From positions 1,581-65,580 of the forward strand of contig DATHJH010000042.1 of assembly GCA_035489815.1 (NCBI GenBank): 64,000 nt of DNA, written 5' to 3'. Shown here piece after piece: positions 2,934-60,036 of this stretch (positions are counted from its first letter, which is position 1; each line of letters starts with the position of its first letter). The notes beneath the pieces are model-generated. The model did no database searches, was not told the DNA's origin, and saw only the letters and a list, made by a program, of their open reading frames with translations. The stretch comes from Candidatus Limnocylindria bacterium. Lineage in GTDB: Bacteria; Patescibacteriota; Saccharimonadia; Saccharimonadales; JAGQNK01. The position numbers and the translations under genes are program-made.

Positions 2934-2962
2934 GCCTAAGCTCCCATCCTGACGGACATGGG

Positions 2963-3122
2963 CTGACCCACGTGCACTTTGTCATCCTGGGCCATGTGCT
3001 CAGCTTGACTGGGTATTGATTCAGAATCCAGTGGCAAAAATTGACTCCTTAAATGGACTGGATGCCGCATCTAGTGCGGCATGACAGGAACGGGGGTGAA
3101 TTTTAAAGTGCATGTGGGTCAG
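2963..3122. repeat. Inverted-repeat element, copy A of a 3-copy family (arm core TGACCCAC-N3-CACTTT)
   Basis: ctgacccacgtgcacttt (2963-2980) is the reverse complement of aaagtgcatgtgggtcag (3105-3122) with one G.U position. An inner gtcat/atgac pair lies at 2981-85 and 3081-85. The element is flanked by the 13-nt direct repeat cggacRtgggctg (2953-65 and 3123-35). Confidence 0.55.
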
Positions 3123-3164
3123 CGGACGTGGGCTGGCGAGTGCTAAACCTGTTACAATAACCTT

Positions 3165-3521: not shown

Positions 3522-6060
3522 ATCCCGTTACAACCCAAAAGACCTACAAACTGTATCTATACATACGAACCATGCAGGCGTGTTCAACCGTTATTCAATG
3601 GCTGGAAGGGAAGTGGGTTGTAACGGGATGAACGGCACGTCCTTAAACCTTGGCAGCGTACGGGCTAAAAAGGCCCGGTTGGCTCTGCGCCTTAAAAAGG
3701 CCGGATACCTGGCGTATGCATCCGTTGGAGTCTTAGGCGGCCTGACTGCTCTGTATCTGTTGCTCCTGGAAAAGAACAAGCTTGGGTATCTGACGCTGGC
3801 CGCAGCGCTGTATGCACTCATGTGGGTGGTGTGGTTCAAGACTGAACTGGTCAAATTACCGCCAAAGAACCCCGGCAACAGCGTAGACGACCTGTTGGAC
3901 GCTGACTTTCTGGCCAAGCTCAAAAACCCGGTGACACCGCGCAGTGCCTGGGGTGGCCTGACTGGCCACTGGCAAGAGATATTCATCACCAACCGCTTGC
4001 AGCTGGATCCAAAGCTGGTTGAAACAGTGCTAAGTGACCGTGAAGCAGACATGGACCAGGTCTGGCAGCTGGCCCGCAAATTGCAATCTGCCCATGACCC
4101 CAATTCGCTCAGTGCCGGGACCGTTACGACCGCCCTGATTCTGTCGTCACCCGAGCTCACTGAGTTCCTTACCACACAAAACATCCGGCCGGAGGATACC
4201 CTCCAGGTCTTTGATTGGCTCAGCCGCGTGTTGGCCTACCAACAGCTGCCCAAACCGTATTTTGGCGGGATTGGTCGGGATTGGGCCTTTGGCTTTACGC
4301 CCAACCTGGAACGCTTCAGCACTAATATAAGCGCGCAAGTACAGGGCGGCGCTGGCCATGCCCACTTTATGTCGCGCAGCAGCTCCATAGACGCCATGAT
4401 CAACAGCCTCAACCAGGCGAGCGGAGGCATAGCTATAGTTGGTAACACCGGTATAGGCAAAACCTCTGCAGTCTATGCCCTGGCTGAACGGCTGCTGCAG
4501 GATAAATCCGTTGGCAGCATTCAAGACCACCAGGTCGTAGCGCTGAATGCGTCAGTTATATTGTCCGCTGCCAAGCAGGATCTGGAACGGACTATGCTGA
4601 TGCTGTTTGGCGAGGCTATGCAGGCCGGCAATATGATTGTCTTTTTGGACGAGGCCCAGCTGTTTTTCCAGCAAGGCGTCGGATCCTTTGATCTGTCGCA
4701 AATCCTGTTGCCGGTGCTGCAGAACCGCCGGCTGAAGCTGATCTGCGCCTTTAATACGACCGACTTCCAGCGGCTCAAAGTTTCTAATCCCGCATTAGCA
4801 GCAGCACTCACACCCGTCGTCCTGCCAGAGCCACCCCAGGCAGAAGTCCTTAAAATCGTAGAAGACAGCGCCCTAGGGATAGAACACCGCACCAGGACAG
4901 TCATCACCTACGAGGCCGTCCGCGAAGCCTACCGGTTAAGCGGACAGTATGTGCAGAATATGGCTTATCCAGGCAAGGCCATCAGCCTGTTAGAGCAAGC
5001 CACCTCCTACGCCGACAATACGGTCCTCACCGCCGTGAGCGTGCAACGTACTGTCGAAAGCACGCTGGGCGTAAAAGTCGGCGGCGTCCAGGGCGAGGAA
5101 GCCGATACACTCCTGCACCTGGAGGACCGTATACATGAACGCATGATCAACCAAACTAGGGCAGTTACCGTTGTGGCAAGTGCCCTCAGGCGGGCCAGGG
5201 CAGGGGTGGGCAACACTAAACGGCCGATCGGTAGCTTTCTGTTTCTCGGGCCTACCGGCGTGGGAAAAACAGAGCTAGCCAAGTCCCTGGCCGCAACCTA
5301 CTTTGGCGATGAAAAGAACATGATCCGCCTGGACATGAGCGAGTACCAGCAGCCAGGCGATGTCAGCCGCATGCTGTCGGACGGCAGCCAATCGGAAAGC
5401 CTGTTGTTGGCCATCCGCAAACAACCTTTCTCTGTGGTACTGTTGGACGAGATTGAAAAGGCGCACAGTAGCGTGCTTAACCTGCTGCTACAGCTGCTGG
5501 ACGAAGGGCAATTAACTGACATCAACGGCCAACCAGCCAGTTTCCGCAACGCGATTATCATTGTGACCTCCAATGCCGGAGCCAATGACATCATTGAACG
5601 CATTACCAAAAACCAGCCGCTGGAGGAGTTTGAACGGCCGCTTATCGACAAACTCATAGCCAGCGGCGTCTTTCGTCCGGAACTGGTCAACCGTTTTGAT
5701 GAAGTCGTACTGTTCAGGCCGCTCAATCAGCAAGAATTAGGACAGGTAGCGCTGCTGATGCTGGCAGAGGTTAACCGTAACCTGGCTAACCAAAACGTCA
5801 GTGTACAACTGACCCAGGCCGCGCTGGATAGTCTGGTCCGGCAGGGCTATGACCCGCAGTTTGGCTCCCGCCCCATGCGCCGTGTCATTCAGCGCACCGT
5901 AGAAGACGCCGTGGCCCAAAAAATCCTCAGCGGCCAGGCCGGCCCCGGAACAAAAATTCTGCTGGATTTACCAGACCTGCAAGATCAGCCGGCTCCCACC
6001 CCGCCTCCGCAGCAACAACCACCAATTTCATTCCCACCGTCGACACCACCTAAAACATAG
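3511..6060 (+). CDS. double AAA+ Clp/Hsp100-family ATPase with N-terminal transmembrane segments and a Pro-rich tail
   Basis: Two Walker A motifs (GNTGIGKTS, GPTGVGKTE) and Walker B-like IVFLDEAQ and VVLLDEIEKAH. RPELVNRFDEVVLFRPL is typical of the ClpA/B/C D2 module. The start is uncertain: TTG 3511, ATG 3598 or ATG 3628. Confidence 0.85.
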   Translation: MPDESRYNPKDLQTVSIHTNHAGVFNRYSMAGREVGCNGMNGTSLNLGSVRAKKARLALRLKKAGYLAYASVGVLGGLTALYLLLLEKNKLGYLTLAAALYALMWVVWFKTELVKLPPKNPGNSVDDLLDADFLAKLKNPVTPRSAWGGLTGHWQEIFITNRLQLDPKLVETVLSDREADMDQVWQLARKLQSAHDPNSLSAGTVTTALILSSPELTEFLTTQNIRPEDTLQVFDWLSRVLAYQQLPKPYFGGIGRDWAFGFTPNLERFSTNISAQVQGGAGHAHFMSRSSSIDAMINSLNQASGGIAIVGNTGIGKTSAVYALAERLLQDKSVGSIQDHQVVALNASVILSAAKQDLERTMLMLFGEAMQAGNMIVFLDEAQLFFQQGVGSFDLSQILLPVLQNRRLKLICAFNTTDFQRLKVSNPALAAALTPVVLPEPPQAEVLKIVEDSALGIEHRTRTVITYEAVREAYRLSGQYVQNMAYPGKAISLLEQATSYADNTVLTAVSVQRTVESTLGVKVGGVQGEEADTLLHLEDRIHERMINQTRAVTVVASALRRARAGVGNTKRPIGSFLFLGPTGVGKTELAKSLAATYFGDEKNMIRLDMSEYQQPGDVSRMLSDGSQSESLLLAIRKQPFSVVLLDEIEKAHSSVLNLLLQLLDEGQLTDINGQPASFRNAIIIVTSNAGANDIIERITKNQPLEEFERPLIDKLIASGVFRPELVNRFDEVVLFRPLNQQELGQVALLMLAEVNRNLANQNVSVQLTQAALDSLVRQGYDPQFGSRPMRRVIQRTVEDAVAQKILSGQAGPGTKILLDLPDLQDQPAPTPPPQQQPPISFPPSTPPKT

Positions 6061-6143
6061 GGATTGGTATTTGTTTAAAAGCAATGAGCTGAATGTAAAA
6101 TTACTTACAAACAAACATCGCTTCATGATGCTAAACTCTGCGC

Positions 6144-7427
6144 ATGCCTTTAGTAGAGCGTTTGAGAGCTAATGATTTTTTGCGGCACAATGCCATCTAT
6201 TTTTCGGGCTCTTTACTGATTGGAGCCCTGAATTATCTGTACTATCCGGTGCTGGGCCGGTTAATGCAGCCTACGGCTTTTGGCGAGGTACAGACCCTTG
6301 TTTCCCTGTTCCTGCAAATTGGAATATTTCTGTCGGTGCTGGCACTGGTGTCAATCAACATTATTGCCAACATGAAGGATGAGGTTCAGCGCAACCGGAT
6401 TAACCTGGAGCTGGAAAAGCTGGCGCTTTTAATCAGCGGCGTGCTGCTGGCAGCTTCTGTTATTTTAGGCCCGTGGCTGCAGAGCTACTTCCAGTTTGGT
6501 TCGCCGCTGCCGTTCAGCCTGCTGGCGCTGGCCGTTGTAGTAACGGTACCATTTACTTTTCGTACCGCCTATCTGCGGGGTAAGAAGCAGTTTAGCCGCA
6601 ATTCTTTGGCCTTTATCGTAGGGGCGGGCAGTAAGCTTATTTTGTCAGTGGCATTGGTAGCAATTGGGCTGAGCACGGCTGGCGCGCTTTTTGGGATAGT
6701 ACTTGCTCAACTGCTTGCCTTTACTTATGCGGCGCGCTATGCCCGGCGCTATGGTTTCACCGAATCCCTGCGCGGCCGGCTGTGGCGCATGCCGGATATG
6801 CGGCTGATTCGGCCAGAGCTTAAATACGCACTGTTAGTGTTAGCCGGGTCGTTGGCCGTAACAGTGCTGTATAGCGTGGATATTGTGGTAGTTAAGCATT
6901 ATTTTGATGTTCAGACTGCCGGGCTGTATGCCGGCGTTGCGACCGTAGCCCGCATTTTGTTTTTTTTGACAGCGTCTATTGCCCAGGTGCTGATGCCGTC
7001 CATTCGCTTGCAGCAATCGGCGGCAGAGAATCGACGAATACTGATCAAGTCACTTGTACTTCTGCTGGCCATCGGCGGCAGCGTTCTGGCCGTTTTTTGT
7101 GCGGTGCCAAAAATGGTAGTTGGTATTTTAATGGGTGAGTCGTACCAAACCTACGCCCACTTACTGCCCCGGCTGAGCGTGGCGATCTTTATTATATCGG
7201 TGCTGAATCTCATCGTCACCTACTATATGGCCCTTCGGTATTACCCTGCAGGAATCGTTATGGTCGCGGGTACGGCCATCACTTATATCTGGATGCACTA
7301 TTCGCATCACTCACTCCAAGCTGTTGTTGATAGCCTGCTGTATGGCAGCCTAACTATTCTGGTCCTGCTCAGCCTGTGGCTGGCCTGGACCCGCCGTAAT
7401 GTTTTAAGAGTGGGAGTCCTCCAATGA
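6144..7427 (+). CDS. MOP/Wzx-type polysaccharide flippase-like membrane protein
   Basis: 427-aa polytopic protein with roughly 12 hydrophobic helices. It is the first gene of a glycosyltransferase cluster, and its stop overlaps the next start. Confidence 0.6.
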   Translation: MPLVERLRANDFLRHNAIYFSGSLLIGALNYLYYPVLGRLMQPTAFGEVQTLVSLFLQIGIFLSVLALVSINIIANMKDEVQRNRINLELEKLALLISGVLLAASVILGPWLQSYFQFGSPLPFSLLALAVVVTVPFTFRTAYLRGKKQFSRNSLAFIVGAGSKLILSVALVAIGLSTAGALFGIVLAQLLAFTYAARYARRYGFTESLRGRLWRMPDMRLIRPELKYALLVLAGSLAVTVLYSVDIVVVKHYFDVQTAGLYAGVATVARILFFLTASIAQVLMPSIRLQQSAAENRRILIKSLVLLLAIGGSVLAVFCAVPKMVVGILMGESYQTYAHLLPRLSVAIFIISVLNLIVTYYMALRYYPAGIVMVAGTAITYIWMHYSHHSLQAVVDSLLYGSLTILVLLSLWLAWTRRNVLRVGVLQ

Positions 7428-20224: not shown

Positions 20225-20929
20225 TCAAGGTGACTTTTTAGGCGACCCTACTATTTGTATGGCTGCCTTTTTAAAAACAATGCCCAGCCCATAATCTTCA
20301 TCCAGCAAACCATCCAGCTTGTCTGTACGCACGACATAGTTTTGTTTTTTGTAGCTTAAAACACCTTTTTGGTGGAGTTTTTTTAGTTCGATACCCGTTG
20401 TTTCACGCGTCAGGCCTATAAAGTTAGCCAGATCCTGCTGTGTAAGGGGCAGGCGTATCTGAACGACGTTCTTCCGCTGCTCTACTCCGAATCGAAGACA
20501 AAGGAAATGTATGGTGTTGAGGACCTTCTGTGAGGCTTTTGATTGTTCCAGGGCATTAATGCGCAGTTGCGTGTGCATGTGGGCACTGATTAACTGGTCC
20601 AGCAGAAAGGCCCGCGCTCTGCCGTGGGAAGCAAAGAACTTCTGGAGCTCTGCCGTCGGTATGCAGTAGACAGCTGTTTCCGTAAATGCCTCGTAATAGA
20701 ACTGTACGTGGTTGACCTTGCCAAAGGCCCACGCCAAGGGGAAGATTTCTGTGTCCAGGTCAAAGCCTATGGGCTTTTCCTCGCCAGCCAGGGTCAGGTT
20801 ATATGTTTTGACAATGCCGCTCTTGACGGCGTAGGCACATTCTGGCACTTCTCCTTGTACCAGAATAATCTCGCCTTTTTTGAAACGTTTGGTCCGGAAA
20901 TTCTTTAAGAAATTAAGATAATCATCCAT
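20225..20929 (-). CDS. Crp/Fnr-family transcriptional regulator
   Basis: The N-terminal cNMP-binding-like beta-barrel (FKKGEIILVQGEVPECAYAVKSGIVK) and the C-terminal HTH (LTQQDLANFIGLTRETTGIELKKL) are both present. Confidence 0.8.
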   Translation of the reverse strand: MDDYLNFLKNFRTKRFKKGEIILVQGEVPECAYAVKSGIVKTYNLTLAGEEKPIGFDLDTEIFPLAWAFGKVNHVQFYYEAFTETAVYCIPTAELQKFFASHGRARAFLLDQLISAHMHTQLRINALEQSKASQKVLNTIHFLCLRFGVEQRKNVVQIRLPLTQQDLANFIGLTRETTGIELKKLHQKGVLSYKKQNYVVRTDKLDGLLDEDYGLGIVFKKAAIQIVGSPKKSP

Positions 20930-21051: not shown

Positions 21052-21579
21052 TCAGGTCTTCTTGCCCCTGGAGGTCCTTGAAGACTTCACTGAACCGTAC
21101 TTCCCGCGAACCTGAAAGAGCAAATAAAACCCTACTGCTGAACCAATCAGACTAAAAACAAACGTACCCGCCCCGCGACCATGGATAAAGAGACTAAGTA
21201 CAGAGTAGGCGGCATTAATCAGCGCCCCCAGAAACAGCAGGTGCCAGCCACGCCTGCTTCGCTTCTTCAGTTCCGGGTAGGCCATCAGCAGGATAACGGC
21301 GTCCGCCACCAGCACCCCTATACCTACATAAATGATCGATTTGTCCGAACTGCTGACCGCCGCAGGGTAATTAACGTAAAACGAACCGTACTCAAACACA
21401 GATTCTGCGGCCCGCACCAGGTTCCAAAGCGCCCAGGCACCAAAAAGCTGCAACATGCCAAAGACCAGCGCAATCCAGGGCCAGACGCCCGCTAACGCCT
21501 CCCGGCTGCTGTCCGGCAGGGGCGGCGCACCCTTAAAAAACGCCTCCAGCTTATCCTCCAGCTTTTTAACCGTACCCAT
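21052..21579 (-). CDS. membrane protein (175 aa, 4 TM helices)
   Basis: ORF with four hydrophobic segments and a basic tail. No family recognised. Confidence 0.5.
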   Translation of the reverse strand: MGTVKKLEDKLEAFFKGAPPLPDSSREALAGVWPWIALVFGMLQLFGAWALWNLVRAAESVFEYGSFYVNYPAAVSSSDKSIIYVGIGVLVADAVILLMAYPELKKRSRRGWHLLFLGALINAAYSVLSLFIHGRGAGTFVFSLIGSAVGFYLLFQVRGKYGSVKSSRTSRGKKT

Positions 21580-21672
21580 CTTCTGGACCCCCTGTTAATA
21601 TGTTATATATGTTATCTAAAGCATAACCCCTGGAAGCGTCCTGTGCAATAAGTCCTGCCGGCAGGGTTCGGG

Positions 21673-21800
21673 TTTGACCCACCCTCACTTTTTGCCTCCA
21701 AAGAGGCTGACGTAACGTGAAGCCGGAGTCCGCCCCAAAAAAAGTGGGAGCGGTTTCCGCGCGGAACGTCTCTTTGGGGCGGAAAGTGAGGTGGGTCAAA
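21673..21800. repeat. Inverted-repeat element, copy B (about 31-bp arms, 64-nt loop)
   Basis: tttgacccaccctcactttttgcctccaaagag (21673-21705) pairs with ctctttggggcggaaagtgaggtgggtcaaa (21770-21800). The loop contains the palindrome ttccgcgcggaa. The element lies in the divergent spacer between the membrane-protein gene and the helicase gene. Confidence 0.6.
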
Positions 21801-21839
21801 CTCAGAGCTGGCACAAACGGGTAATAGGGTACAATAAGC

Positions 21840-24800
21840 GTGATGTCAGATTTTGCCAGGGAGTACAAACGGCTCAACGCCATGCAGAAAAAAGCCGTGG
21901 ACGCCACGGAGGGTCCGCTATTGGTCATTGCCGGTCCCGGCACAGGAAAAACACAGCTGCTCAGTGCCCGCGTAGCCAACATTTTGAAGCTGACAGACTC
22001 GTTACCCAGCAGCATACTCTGCCTTACTTTCACCGAAGCGGCGGCGCTGAACATGCGCGAACGCCTGCGGAGCATGATCGGTGAAGACGCCTACGGTGTA
22101 CATATAAATACATACCACAGCTTCGCCAGCGACATCATCCGCGCCAATCCTGATTTTTTTGAAACCGTCGACCTCCTGACAGGAGCAGATACTCGCATGG
22201 AGCGGCCAATCAACGACCTGGGCCAACTGGAAATCGTCAAAAGCATAGTTTACGGACTACCATTCACCGACCCGCTGCGCGGAGCACGGTATTACCTGAA
22301 AAGTGTCGTATCGACCATATCGGATCTGAAGCAGGCCAACATAGACCCAGAGAAGATGCGTGCCATCGCCAAGGATAACGCCCGGGTTTGCCTGGAACTG
22401 TCGCCGCGCATCCATGACCTGATGTCGCCTCATACACGCATGCCCGGCAAAGCCGGGGCGGCGCAGCAACTGTTTACGGGCTTCCGGAATGAGCTGGCAT
22501 CGGCCCAGGGCGAACTGGCCGACGCGGCCCTGAAAGAGCTGGACCGTGCGCTGGAATCTTCTGCCGAAGCCAACTCCACAAAACCGTTGACCGCCTGGAA
22601 GAACAGCTGGCTGCAAAAGGACGATACTGACCGGTGGTGCTTCACCAATCCGGCCGTCAACGATCGACTGCTGTCGCTGGCGACGATTTATGAAAAGTAC
22701 CAGGAAATACTTGAATCAACCGGCCAATATGATTTCAACGATATGATTCTGCGCACATTAAAAGCCCTGCAGGAAAAGCCGGAGCTCAAGTTCAACCTGC
22801 AGGAACAGTACCAGTACATCCTGCTGGACGAATTCCAGGACACTAATGCCGTCCAATTTGAACTCGTGCGGACGCTGGCCGACCATCCGGTTCACGAAGG
22901 CCGCCCGAACATCATGGCCGTCGGCGACGACGACCAGGGTATCTTTGCTTTTCAGGGTGCCGACATCGGCAATATGATCCAGTTTTTAGCCGCTTTCCGG
23001 GACGTAGAGGTCATAAATCTGGTCCAGAACTACCGCTCGCACCACGACATCCTGCACGTCGCCCACAACATTGCGGAGCAGATAGAATCGCGCATACATC
23101 ATTCGCTTGACGGTGTCACCAAAAACATTGAAGCCGCAGCAAGCGACCTGCCTGACAACGCGACTATAGCCCGGCACGAGTTCACTTCGGCCGCTGCTGA
23201 AAACGGCTGGATCGCCGATCAGATCGCAGAGCAGATTGAGAATGGCGTGCCAGCGCACGAAATCGCCGTACTGGCGCCTAAGCATGCCGTCCTGGAAACG
23301 CTCGTACCGTTTTTAAACAAACGGGGCATCCCGGTCACCTACGAAAAGCGCGAAAACATCTTTGAAACACCCGTCGTGCAGACAATCCTGCTGATGTGCG
23401 AGCTTTTGCGCGCCACAGCCAGAGGCGACCACTCCCTTATGGACCAGCTGCTGCCGAGGGTTCTGAGCCTGGATTTCTGGCAGATTCCGATCGAAACAAT
23501 CTGGCAGCTAAACTGGGACCACGCCCGCCAGCACCAGGAAGATACCAAACGCTGGGTCGAACGCACAGTATCGCTGCCGCGCACGGCCGAGCAAGTCAAG
23601 TTCCTGTTGCGTCTGGGCACCAACAACGAAACTTACGGTTTAGAATTGACACTCGATTATCTTACCGGTGCAAAACCGCTGCAGTACGACCACGCCAGCT
23701 ACACCTCGCCGTTGAAGCAGTTTTATTTTTCCGATTCAGCACTTAAGGATTCGTCGCTTCAGTTTTACGAGGCTATTTCGCACCTTTCCGTCATCCGCGC
23801 CCAGCTGCGCGAACAGCAGGCAAGGGAAGATCACCGCCTTGATATAGACAGTCTGCTGGATTTGTATGAGACTTACCAGGAAGCCGAGCAGCCGCTCATC
23901 AACACCCACCCGATCGCTCAGGCCGAATCGTCCGTGCAGCTGCAAACCGTTTACAAGGCCAAGGGCCTGGAATACGAGCACGTATACCTTACCAATTTGC
24001 AGGACGATGTGTGGGGCAGCACCGCCAAGGGCGGTAGCAACAAGCTGTCCATCCCAGCCAATCTGAAGCACATCCGGCACGATGCCTCCACCGAGGACAC
24101 GCTGCGCCGGCTGCTGTTCGTGGCTGTAACCCGCGCCAAACACGGTCTTGTACTGACCAGCCACGCCCAGTCCGAGTCAGGCAAAAAGACCCAAGCCGTC
24201 AAATACCTGCAGGAATTCGAAGAAAACGACCAGCATTACAGCGGCGTATTGCCGGATGGCGCAAACCGCATATTCATGACCGACCGCGAGCCCGAACAGC
24301 TGCAGAACGACGTCGACACACTGTGGCATAGCCGCCACACCGAACTGACGCCGACGCTCAAGAGCCTGCTGGGCGAACGGCTTGAGCGCTACGTCATGAG
24401 CCCGACCCACTTGAATACGTTCACTAACGTTGAATATTCCGGACCAATGGACTTCCTGCTTGGTCCGCTGCTACGCTTTCCGAAAGCCCCGACCGCCGAC
24501 AGCGTTTACGGCGACGCCGTGCACCGGGCGCTGGAGCAGTACCAAAAATCCTGGAAGGATGGCCGGGGAATCAGCATAGACCAAGCCATTGGCATTTTTG
24601 AAGCCCGGATGGAGCGCGGCTTTTTGTCAGACGTTGATAGAAAAGCTTTCACTGAGCGGGGCAAACGCGCCCTGCGGACTTATCTTGCCAAAAACGGCGA
24701 AAGACTGCGCCGCCCTGCCGAGGTAGAATTTGATTTCCGCCGTGAAGGCTGCGTGTTCGACCAGGCAGTATTGACCGGCAAAATGGACCGCCTGGAAGTC

Positions 24801-25169
24801 AACCAGGCCGACAAAACCGTGCGCATCATCGATTTCAAAAGCGGAAGCCCAAGCGCCAAATGGGGCAGCGACGGCAAGCATATCAACTACAAACAGCAGC
24901 TATATTTTTACAACCTGCTGATCGAAACGTCGCGGACATTCAAGGGTTATAAGGTCAACAGCGCGGCGCTGGAATTCATCGAACCGCTGCCGAACGGTGA
25001 ATCCGCGCCACCACTGGAGCTAAGGTTCGACCAAAAAGAATATGACGACTTCAAAAGACTGCTGCTGAACGTCTGGCAGCGCATTCATAACCTGGACCTG
25101 CCGGATATCTCTGGCTACCCGGCCAGTGCAACCGGCGTTCGGGCATTCATAAAATACCTGCTGGCCTAA
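21840..25169 (+). CDS. UvrD/PcrA/AddA-type SF1 helicase fused to a C-terminal PD-(D/E)xK (RecB/Cas4-like) nuclease domain
   Basis: LVIAGPGTGKTQ (Walker A), ILLDEFQDTN (motif II), VGDDDQGIFAFQGA, NYRS and VYKAKGLEYEHVYL are SF1 helicase motifs. The C-terminal MDRLE...RIIDFKSG...YKQQLYFY resembles the RecB-family nuclease motif. Confidence 0.85.
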   Translation: MMSDFAREYKRLNAMQKKAVDATEGPLLVIAGPGTGKTQLLSARVANILKLTDSLPSSILCLTFTEAAALNMRERLRSMIGEDAYGVHINTYHSFASDIIRANPDFFETVDLLTGADTRMERPINDLGQLEIVKSIVYGLPFTDPLRGARYYLKSVVSTISDLKQANIDPEKMRAIAKDNARVCLELSPRIHDLMSPHTRMPGKAGAAQQLFTGFRNELASAQGELADAALKELDRALESSAEANSTKPLTAWKNSWLQKDDTDRWCFTNPAVNDRLLSLATIYEKYQEILESTGQYDFNDMILRTLKALQEKPELKFNLQEQYQYILLDEFQDTNAVQFELVRTLADHPVHEGRPNIMAVGDDDQGIFAFQGADIGNMIQFLAAFRDVEVINLVQNYRSHHDILHVAHNIAEQIESRIHHSLDGVTKNIEAAASDLPDNATIARHEFTSAAAENGWIADQIAEQIENGVPAHEIAVLAPKHAVLETLVPFLNKRGIPVTYEKRENIFETPVVQTILLMCELLRATARGDHSLMDQLLPRVLSLDFWQIPIETIWQLNWDHARQHQEDTKRWVERTVSLPRTAEQVKFLLRLGTNNETYGLELTLDYLTGAKPLQYDHASYTSPLKQFYFSDSALKDSSLQFYEAISHLSVIRAQLREQQAREDHRLDIDSLLDLYETYQEAEQPLINTHPIAQAESSVQLQTVYKAKGLEYEHVYLTNLQDDVWGSTAKGGSNKLSIPANLKHIRHDASTEDTLRRLLFVAVTRAKHGLVLTSHAQSESGKKTQAVKYLQEFEENDQHYSGVLPDGANRIFMTDREPEQLQNDVDTLWHSRHTELTPTLKSLLGERLERYVMSPTHLNTFTNVEYSGPMDFLLGPLLRFPKAPTADSVYGDAVHRALEQYQKSWKDGRGISIDQAIGIFEARMERGFLSDVDRKAFTERGKRALRTYLAKNGERLRRPAEVEFDFRREGCVFDQAVLTGKMDRLEVNQADKTVRIIDFKSGSPSAKWGSDGKHINYKQQLYFYNLLIETSRTFKGYKVNSAALEFIEPLPNGESAPPLELRFDQKEYDDFKRLLLNVWQRIHNLDLPDISGYPASATGVRAFIKYLLA

Positions 25170-51906: not shown

Positions 51907-52246
51907 TCCGGAGTAGCTCAATGGTAGAGCGATTGGCTGTCAGTTGGCAGCGCACCTGAGTAATCAGGTGATGAAAACAGGGTGAATTGCAGGAAACCTA
52001 CATCCTCGCAGAGGACACGGCAATCTGCAGCCAAGCTAGAAAGAGCAAAAGTTCATTAATGAACTGAGGTTTTCTAGAAGGTTCAGAGACTAGGGAGTGA
52101 GACTCAACGATAATCTCCCCGCGAGCGCCCTGCATCCTACGTAGCTTTATGCGAAGGAGGATGATGAAATAGTCCACGCTCCTGCGAAAGCAGAAGGTCT
52201 AAGTGTAACCAATAGGTTGCCGGTTCGAGTCCGGCCTCCGGAGCCA
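51907..52246 (+). tRNA. tRNA-Asn(GUU) interrupted by a group I intron (exon 1 51907-51940, exon 2 52206-52246, CCA encoded)
   Basis: The joined exons give a canonical cloverleaf: acceptor UCCGGAG/CUCCGGA, D arm GCUC-AAUGGUA-GAGC, anticodon arm AUUGG-CUGUUAA-CCAAU, T arm GCCGG-UUCGAGU-CCGGC, discriminator G73 and CCA. Confidence 0.8.
51941..52205 (+). ncRNA. group I intron (265 nt, no ORF), probably of the tRNA-intron (IC3-like) type
   Basis: P1 forms between exon GCUGU and intron GCAGC with a U.G pair at the splice site. P10 forms between intron GUUG and exon-2 UAAC. Other marks are a P2 hairpin with a GUAA loop (51953-70), AGAGACUA at 52085-92, a GAAA-capped hairpin at 52182-93 and a terminal G at 52205. 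Confidence 0.75.
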
Positions 52247-59805: not shown

Positions 59806-59865
59806 AACAGGTATTGTACGAGCCTGAACAGGTCATATCAAGCACAATCAGCCTATCGAGCCAGG

Positions 59866-60036
59866 CCCCATACTCACTTTTTCTCCACCCCCGTCATTCC
59901 GGCCTTGAGCCGGCCTGCAGGCAGGCCGGAGTCCAAGATAATGGGTTATTCCTCTGGACGGCTGGGTCATTCATCCTTCGCAGTCTTGCTACAGAGAACC
60001 GGGGCCTGGCATGACGGAAAAGTGAGAGTGGGTCAG
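59866..60036. repeat. Inverted-repeat element, copy C
   Basis: The right arm atgacggaaaagtgagagtgggtcag (60011-36) carries the family core. The degenerate left arm is ccccatactcactttttctccacccccgtcat (59866-97). A perfect 10-mer pair, gccaggcccc (59860-69) and ggggcctggc (60001-10), is also present. Confidence 0.5.

Follow-up and report, generated by a model that had tools for sequence, protein, structure and literature searches.

What is a long, near-perfect hairpin doing in the spacer between two divergent genes? The question is raised by positions 21673 to 21800 of a 64,000-nucleotide stretch of DNA, which we refer to as the window (contig DATHJH010000042.1 of assembly GCA_035489815.1, labelled Candidatus Limnocylindria bacterium). 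An earlier note, made from the letters of the sequence, had grouped this hairpin with two others in the window and had proposed three roles for it: a miniature mobile element, a structured small RNA or 5' leader, or a paired operator for one DNA-binding protein. We conclude, with a probability of roughly 0.88, that the hairpin is a miniature inverted-repeat transposable element (MITE), one copy of a family that belongs to an IS10-like insertion sequence (IS) of the IS4 family. We refer to this hairpin as copy B and to the two others as copies A and C. Both the proposal of a family and that of a miniature mobile element were borne out: there are further copies in other genomes, there are 9-bp target-site duplications (TSDs) around them, and there are autonomous ISs with the same terminal inverted repeats (TIRs). 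The features on which the argument draws are collected in Table 1.

Table 1. Coordinates of the three hairpin elements, their parts and the genes and promoter-like sites around copy B (positions of the window)
Feature	Position	Strand	Remarks
MITE copy B	21674..21799	.	Imperfect palindrome of 126 bp; interior of "type II"
Left TIR of copy B	21674..21693	+	T-TGACCCAC-CCT-CACTTTTT
Right TIR of copy B	21781..21799	-	Reverse complement is T-TGACCCAC-CT-CACTTTCC
Palindromic interior of copy B	21694..21780	.	Subfamily motifs GTGAAGCCGGAG (21717-21728) and TTCCGCGCGGAA (21755-21766)
MITE copy A	2963..3122	.	160 bp; intact TIRs (N3 GTG/ATG); "GTCAT...ATGAC" interior
Left TSD of copy A	2953..2962	.	CGGACATGGG
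Right TSD of copy A	3123..3132	.	CGGACGTGGG
MITE copy C	59863..60036	.	TIR intact on the right, degenerate on the left (GGCCCCATACTCACTTT); no TSD
Flanking gene for 175-aa predicted membrane protein	21052..21579	-	No Pfam family; outside the element
Putative promoter of 175-aa gene	~21622-21650	-	TTGCAC-N17-TATGCT; between the gene and copy B
Flanking gene for UvrD-type helicase / PD-(D/E)XK nuclease	21843..25169	+	Outside the element
Promoter-like site of helicase gene	21808..21835	+	CTGGCA-N16-TACAAT; wholly downstream of the right end of copy B

Copy B and its relatives in the window

Copy B folds into a very stable hairpin. The minimum free energy of positions 21660 to 21815, folded as RNA, was -94.1 kcal/mol, compared with -55.2 +/- 4.6 kcal/mol for dinucleotide shuffles (n=200), none of which was as stable (0/200; z = -8.4). 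The outer stem contains about 28 pairs, 4 of which are G.U, together with a bulged C and one further single-base bulge, and in these respects the fold agrees with the arms that the earlier note had described. The C is bulged because one base has been lost from the 3-nt spacer of the right TIR. The 64-nt loop that had been drawn between the arms does not appear in the fold; the imperfect palindrome runs on through it. The palindrome TTCCGCGCGGAA, which had been placed inside that loop, is present, and so is the 10-mer that copy B was said to have in common with copy C (GCCGGAGTCC, at 21722-21731 and 59925-59934).

The left arm of copy B begins at 21674/21675 and the right arm finishes at 21798/21799; read on the forward strand, the right end is GGAAAGTG-AG-GTGGGTCA-A. 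Pairing continues past the tips for about 15 nt (21664-21673 with 21800-21812). This extra pairing is rich in G.U and is not found in other copies, and we left it outside the boundaries of the element. The element fills about half of the shared spacer, as had been observed before (126 of 260 nt; 21580-21839), and the sole open reading frame (ORF) that crosses it is an antisense run-on of the helicase start. Its arms agree with the TIR consensus obtained from 80 arms elsewhere, apart from the base at the tip and the loss of 1 nt from the right arm. The covariance model R1, built from the copy B group, scores copy B at 82.6 bits, copy B being a training sequence of that model. Against Rfam, copy B gave no match at the gathering threshold in a scan of the window, and at E <= 10 only a 10-bit chance match to a snoRNA. 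A short-read contig from the same population (L001) breaks inside hairpin B, which is the behaviour expected of a repeated palindrome.

The motif TGACCCAC-N2-3-CACTTT has five exact matches in the window, where 0.00 are expected: 2964-2980 (+), 3105-3121 (-), 21675-21691 (+), 21783-21798 (-) and 60019-60035 (-). The enrichment of this core, on which the idea of a family had been made to depend, is thus present. The matches include both arms of copy B, as had been stated. The statement that the motif also forms the arms of the other two elements was correct for both arms of copy A and for the right arm of copy C but not for the left arm of copy C (59864-59880), which has 3 mismatches to it. Copy A scores 41.4 bits with R1 and lies between the two halves of a 10-bp duplication that is identical at 9/10 positions. 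Copy C is a decayed copy whose left tip is gone; two other assemblies from the same population have it in identical form. Neither an nhmmer profile of the 80 arms nor R1 found further members of the family in the window.

Other repeats lie close to copy A. Two hairpin or inverted-repeat elements adjoin it (2672-2939), both without TGACCCAC ends. The first, AATCCAATTCTCCCTGT...ACAGGGAGGATTGGGTT (2672-2761), stands directly after a stop codon, and the second is a 28-nt inverted repeat (2758-2785 and 2912-2939) whose arms are 86% complementary. These hairpins may be other repeat families that cluster in the same spacer. R1 gives a match of 19.9 bits at 2669-2761, which we rejected as an unrelated hairpin whose ends are not TGACCCAC. 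A perfect 40-bp palindrome, TGTACTCTAAAAGTGTCCGG/CCGGACACTTTTAGAGTACA (2237-2276), is situated upstream of a small gene (~2346-2672), and a Logan contig from the same population (L179) terminates exactly within this palindrome. Searches with the proteins at the ends of the window lengthened the sequence of this genome by only about 1.5 kb and 0.7 kb.

The family in other genomes

A single arm holds too little information to be searched for by itself: in a scan of viral contigs it matched at least 120 contigs, one match each, which is chance noise, and these contigs (L002-L121) were left out. Therefore, we used a two-arm pattern, TGACCCACNNNCACTTT-N(91-151)-GTGGGTCA, which beforehand recovered copies A and B in the window. 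We applied it to one genome per species (185,579 species, 596 Gb) and obtained 47 loci, compared with about 4 expected by chance (2 x 596e9 x 61 / 4^22). Most of the loci (44/47) lie in 18 assemblies that are labelled as Saccharibacteria or other candidate phyla radiation (CPR) bacteria, or are metagenome-assembled genomes (MAGs) named simply "bacterium". The labels are Saccharimonadia/Saccharibacteria, "Patescibacteria group", Parcubacteria, Roizmanbacteria, CPR2 and "bacterium" (JAJYQQ, JAKPIL). The search for further copies that had been recommended for related genomes was therefore positive. Some assemblies hold many copies of the exact pattern (10 in CALLJT01, 7 in JBGAVA01, and 4 each in JBASZU01 and CAYZZH01). 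We rejected the other three loci (L135, L145 and L148; two in WOR-3 MAGs and one in a gammaproteobacterial MAG), which lack the second CACTTT box, look like coding sequence and represent the expected chance matches.

The elements are flanked by direct repeats. We took the element to be C-TGACCC...GGGTCA-G and the duplication to be the 9 bases directly outside it. Among 53 elements, the two 9-mer flanks match at 9/9 positions in 16, at 8/9 in 11 and at 7/9 in 8, so that 35/53 have a TSD with at least 7/9 identities, compared with 0.1% of mismatched left/right flank pairs. Several of the remaining elements have a duplication that is shifted by one base or is 10 bp long. The duplications are perfect for the copies in Roizmanbacteria (L165) and CPR2 (L166). 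The elements are 105-175 bp long and non-coding. According to a crude ORF map, they are mostly intergenic, at 20-100 bp from gene ends, and occur in tandem, divergent and convergent gene contexts. One contig (L160, CALLJT010000010.1) carries two identical 120-bp type II copies in the same orientation and 2.4 kb apart (2955-3074 and 5371-5490), a pair that may have arisen by recent transposition or segmental duplication or may be a composite element.

From 80 non-redundant arms, we derived a 20-bp TIR consensus, C-TGACCCAC-[A/G]NN-CACTTTTT, whose first base is C in 79/80. The conserved boxes are partly fixed by the search pattern, and therefore only the tip base, the T-run and the variability of the N3 triplet are unbiased. 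Every element of the family is an imperfect palindrome from end to end. Between identical ends the interiors are modular, with at least three unrelated types. One group has nested palindromes of the GTCATCC...GGATGAC type, and copies A and C resemble it. The type II interior, that of the copy B group, consists of AGTGCAGCCrGAG, a variable hairpin and CyGCGCGnAACGC; our alignment of this type (A2) contains copy B and 17 copies from 9 other assemblies.

Many of the interiors are nested palindromes that start with GTCAT(C/T)C and end with G(A/G)ATGAC. Examples are found in the window (2981-3088 and 59892-60013), in L126 (7762-7840) and in L165 (1126-1226, with GTCATTGCGAGCGA...CTCGCAATGAC). Such GTCAT-type interiors may constitute a second, independent repeat family that inserts into, or recombines with, the TGACCCAC-type elements.

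An autonomous IS4-family partner

At one locus (L132, JAKPIL010000186.1), a short element (4943-5066) stands beside one of 1142 bp (5077-6218). The ends of the long element are perfect over 21 bp (CTGACCCACACTCACTTTTTT and AAAAAAGTGAGTGTGGGTCAG); it is flanked by the duplication GGTGTAGGG and contains a single ORF of 349 aa that matches the Pfam domain DDE_Tnp_1 (PF01609, E 5e-8). The best NCBIfam match of this ORF is the IS4 family transposase NF033591 (E 8e-25). The score is below the curated cut-off (87.7 bits versus 152 bits), as it is for every NCBIfam IS4 model; thus, the protein represents a divergent lineage. Its match to the Tn5 transposase structure is weak and non-significant (E 0.15). 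The translation of the L132 copy holds YAERFEIEEAFKDMK, which reads as Y-(2)-R-(3)-E-(6)-K, the signature that defines the IS4 family (PMC2266710). In the classification of that family, the combination of 5'-CT ends with direct repeats of 9 bp and a complete YREK indicates subgroup IS10, with IS50 close to it (PMC2266710, Table 1).

In the protein collection, at least 500 proteins are relatives of the L132 transposase. They are mostly on contigs of 1.1-2 kb, as usually happens to a repeated IS when short reads are assembled. Three relatives on long contigs (L169, L170 and L171/L172; 74-80% identity) have the same TIRs and the perfect duplications TATAACAAT, TTCCAGCAG and GCTTGACAG. The four full-length ISs are all about 1.15 kb long, with a DDE transposase of 343-350 aa, CTGACCC ends and perfect 9-bp repeats (4/4). 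An IS with these TIRs is widespread in Saccharibacteria and occurs also in other CPR bacteria. The short elements have the same ends and the same length of duplication as this IS but none of its interior; therefore, they are MITEs mobilised in trans. If Tn5/Tn10-type elements are a guide, the transposase would bind both ends of the short element and pair them, and the paired element would then be cut out and pasted in elsewhere, at a target cut with a stagger of 9 bp.

Two further observations concern the IS itself. In L132 (5087-5110) as well as in L169 (3040-3063), the right TIR contains the end of the transposase ORF. Read codon by codon, the L132 stop codon is the TGA of AAAAAG-TGA-GTGTGGGTCAG, and position 3053, where the gene called in L169 ends, is within the TIR. 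Part of the conserved AAAGTG box of the TIR is therefore coding sequence as well, for the C-terminal lysines and the stop. As for target sites, the MITE and the IS of L132 share nearly one duplicated target (GTGTAGGGT/C and GGTGTAGGG), which suggests that one site is used repeatedly or that a place beside an existing end is preferred. The target of copy A (CGGACRTGGG) and the left flank of copy B (GGTTCGGGT) both end in GGG.

Bacterial MITEs whose ends are also those of a resident IS include Correia elements in Neisseria, RUP in Streptococcus pneumoniae, ERIC/IRU in enterobacteria and Nezha in cyanobacteria. Like these, our elements are small, non-coding, multi-copy and mostly intergenic, fold as a hairpin over their whole length, and have TIRs and TSDs, with the sequence of the TIRs and the length of the duplication equal to those of an autonomous IS. 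Unlike them, they have a TIR sequence of their own, Saccharibacteria and other CPR bacteria as hosts, highly modular interiors, and within the TIR a variable 3-nt spacer that is usually the same in both arms. Their IS resembles the IS10 subgroup of the IS4 family in its one ORF without a frameshift, DDE_Tnp_1 domain, YREK signature and 9-bp repeats, and its ends, CTGA..., begin with 5'-CT as do those of IS10 and IS50. It differs from that subgroup in its length (~1.14-1.15 kb versus 1.2-1.35 kb), in its small transposase (343-350 aa) and, in L132, in having the stop codon of the transposase inside the right TIR. The literature that we searched contained no mention of MITEs in Saccharibacteria or Patescibacteria, nor the TIR sequence TGACCCAC, its IS or the MITE subfamilies, which we did not compare with ISfinder. 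Thus, while MITEs and IS4 elements are already well known, this family of TIR, IS and MITE seems undescribed.

The insertion of copy B

The earlier note had suggested that orthologous spacers be compared. The closest relative with the same gene pair (L174; helicase 71% identical, divergent 173-aa gene 50% identical, E 2e-50) has an 80-nt spacer without the element, as insertion predicts. Its promoter hexamers stand back to back (TATGCT, in an ATTGTG...TATGCT arrangement, and TACACT) and are similar to those of the window. In two other relatives the spacers upstream of the helicase gene measure 62 nt and 24 nt and are likewise without the element. The helicases of the three element-free relatives are 71-73% identical to that of the window, and these relatives belong to different genera or species. 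The putative promoters of the window flank copy B and have similar counterparts in L174 without it; therefore, an insertion between them left both intact. Copy B most likely has the effect of pushing the putative promoters about 125 bp further apart, and no other. A site between promoters is of the kind that allows such an element to persist when genes are densely packed. By this account, copy B would have inserted between the two putative promoters and would then have lost its duplication, the C/G of its tips and one base of its right TIR.

Several results weigh against reading the hairpin as a MITE, the first of them concerning copy B itself. We recognised no TSD around copy B with the 9-mer flank model, at any of several offsets tried; the flanks (GGTTCGGG and AACTCAGA) have 3 identities and 5 transitions, which is too weak to call a TSD. 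The tips of copy B are T and A where C and G are expected, C being present in 79/80 arms elsewhere, and among 18 aligned type II copies it has the only T.A tip pair. With its tips deviant and a duplication of its own missing, the case for its transposition is drawn from membership of the family. No same-species allele with an empty site was found in metagenome contigs queried with the helicase N-terminus (best match, 44% identity). The window contains no homologue of the transposase: with that protein as query, tblastn of the window and the fetched MITE loci matched L132 itself only.

The remaining points concern the family. The N3 triplet occurs in 14 variants, and yet it is the same in both arms of 37/51 elements, compared with 7.9 when arms were re-paired (maximum 16 in 2000 shuffles). 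The check for compensatory stem changes that had been called for was positive in the type II alignment, where 15/31 consensus pairs show them, across 10 assemblies. The strand with AGTGCAGCC folds better in 13/16 copies, by a mean of 8.5 kcal/mol, and has 44 G.U pairs versus 14 on the other strand (16 copies). Because 9/16 of these copies come from one assembly and are related, the strand asymmetry is only a hint. Taken together, the matched N3 triplets, the compensatory changes and the strand bias go beyond what transposase binding alone accounts for, and they leave room for selection on a single-stranded form.

The right TIR of copy B is one base short in its 3-nt spacer. This change and that of the tips fall at positions where IS4-type transposases cleave and bind, and copy B is therefore probably immobile. 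We regard it as probably a decayed, immobile copy of its family and most likely a fixed, inert remnant.

Alternative explanations

Could the type II subfamily have been kept by selection as a single-stranded hairpin? Such an exapted, MITE-borne RNA or single-stranded DNA, acting for example as a processing or insulator signal, would explain the G.U strand asymmetry and the matched N3 triplets, and we consider it unlikely. It is likewise improbable that the element, or its type II subfamily, is transcribed and works as a MITE-derived structured RNA, whether as an RNase III target, as a stabiliser or insulator, or as a small RNA. Roles at the RNA level have been proposed for Correia, ERIC and similar elements, and the stability of the fold, the compensatory changes and the better folding of the AGTGCAGCC strand all favour such a role here. 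However, the asymmetry and the covariation are not independent events in copies of which more than half come from one assembly, and arms that are complementary are also what an origin as palindromic DNA would give. Rfam offers no family at either the gathering or the E-value threshold, and both putative promoters in the window lie outside the element and are directed away from it. Type II copies are found sense or antisense to their neighbours with no consistent preference, which argues against a cis-acting RNA role. The small RNA or 5' leader of the earlier proposal was thus not upheld. We infer that the palindromy reflects how the DNA originated or is maintained, for example by fold-back of one end or correction of one arm by the other, and not that an RNA is required.

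A paired operator for a cellular regulator is very improbable. It would have, for example, the Crp/Fnr-family protein encoded at 20225-20929 co-regulate the divergent genes, and it fits with two identical inverted half-sites in a shared promoter region and with a Crp-family regulator gene two genes away. However, the same 20-bp sequence bounds a transposase-encoding IS at four loci and recurs beside unrelated genes in 18 assemblies with flanking 9-bp duplications, the half-sites are about 100 bp apart, unlike the spacing of dimeric operators, and the orthologous promoter region in L174 works without the element. The TSDs and the ISs effectively refute a cellular operator. What survives of the paired operator is trivial: the arms would be binding sites of one protein, and that protein would be the transposase.

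A REP/BIME- or REPIN-like element mobilised by a RAYT (an IS200/IS605-type tyrosine transposase) is barely credible and can be dismissed, together with the description "REP-like": those elements are also short intergenic repeats in inverted, hairpin-forming pairs, but ours are not members, as their arms are not themselves palindromic, their insertions make 9-bp duplications, which RAYT/IS200-type single-strand transposition is not known to do, and the element that shares their ends encodes an IS4-family DDE transposase instead of a Y1/HUH enzyme.

Other features of the window

About 20 nt upstream of the start of the 175-aa gene, on the opposite strand, there is a short tandem direct repeat, ATGTTATAT-ATGTTATC (21600-21617), near the likely ribosome-binding or leader region of that gene. 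Elsewhere in the window, a group I intron (Rfam RF00028, 81 bits, E 4e-19) at 51931-52196 (+) interrupts a tRNA gene. The exons of the tRNA are at about 51907-51930 and 52197-52246, with GTTCCGGAGTAGCTCAATGGTAGAGCG before the intron and ...AGGTTGCCGGTTCGAGTCCGGCCTCCGGAGCCA after it. ARAGORN found no tRNA in the unspliced window and found one after removal of the intron; the anticodon depends on the splice points.

The name of the assembly deserves comment. An NCBI protein that is 100% identical to the helicase-nuclease is labelled "MAG TPA: Candidatus Limnocylindria bacterium", that is, Chloroflexota. All named relatives of the helicase at 50-73% identity are from Saccharibacteria/Saccharimonadales. 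The MITE family, too, is specific to the CPR. The window looks like Saccharibacteria (CPR/Patescibacteria), and the Limnocylindria label is probably the result of mis-binning or mislabelling.

Implications

For annotation, a striking hairpin in a promoter region turns out to be a transposon remnant and not a regulator, and a false lead is removed. The inverted pair C-TGACCCAC-N3-CACTTTTT with a 9-bp duplication provides a masking signature for MAGs of Saccharibacteria and other CPR bacteria, in whose assemblies these repeats break contigs (L001 and the transposase contigs of ~1.1-2 kb are examples). Strains could also be tracked with the insertions as polymorphic markers. For the biology of these bacteria, strongly reduced episymbiont genomes of about 1 Mb hold multiple copies of an IS4-type element and its MITEs, which are active there, and the occurrence of near-identical ends in Saccharibacteria, Roizmanbacteria, CPR2 and a Parcubacteria-labelled genome suggests gene flow between lineages of the CPR.

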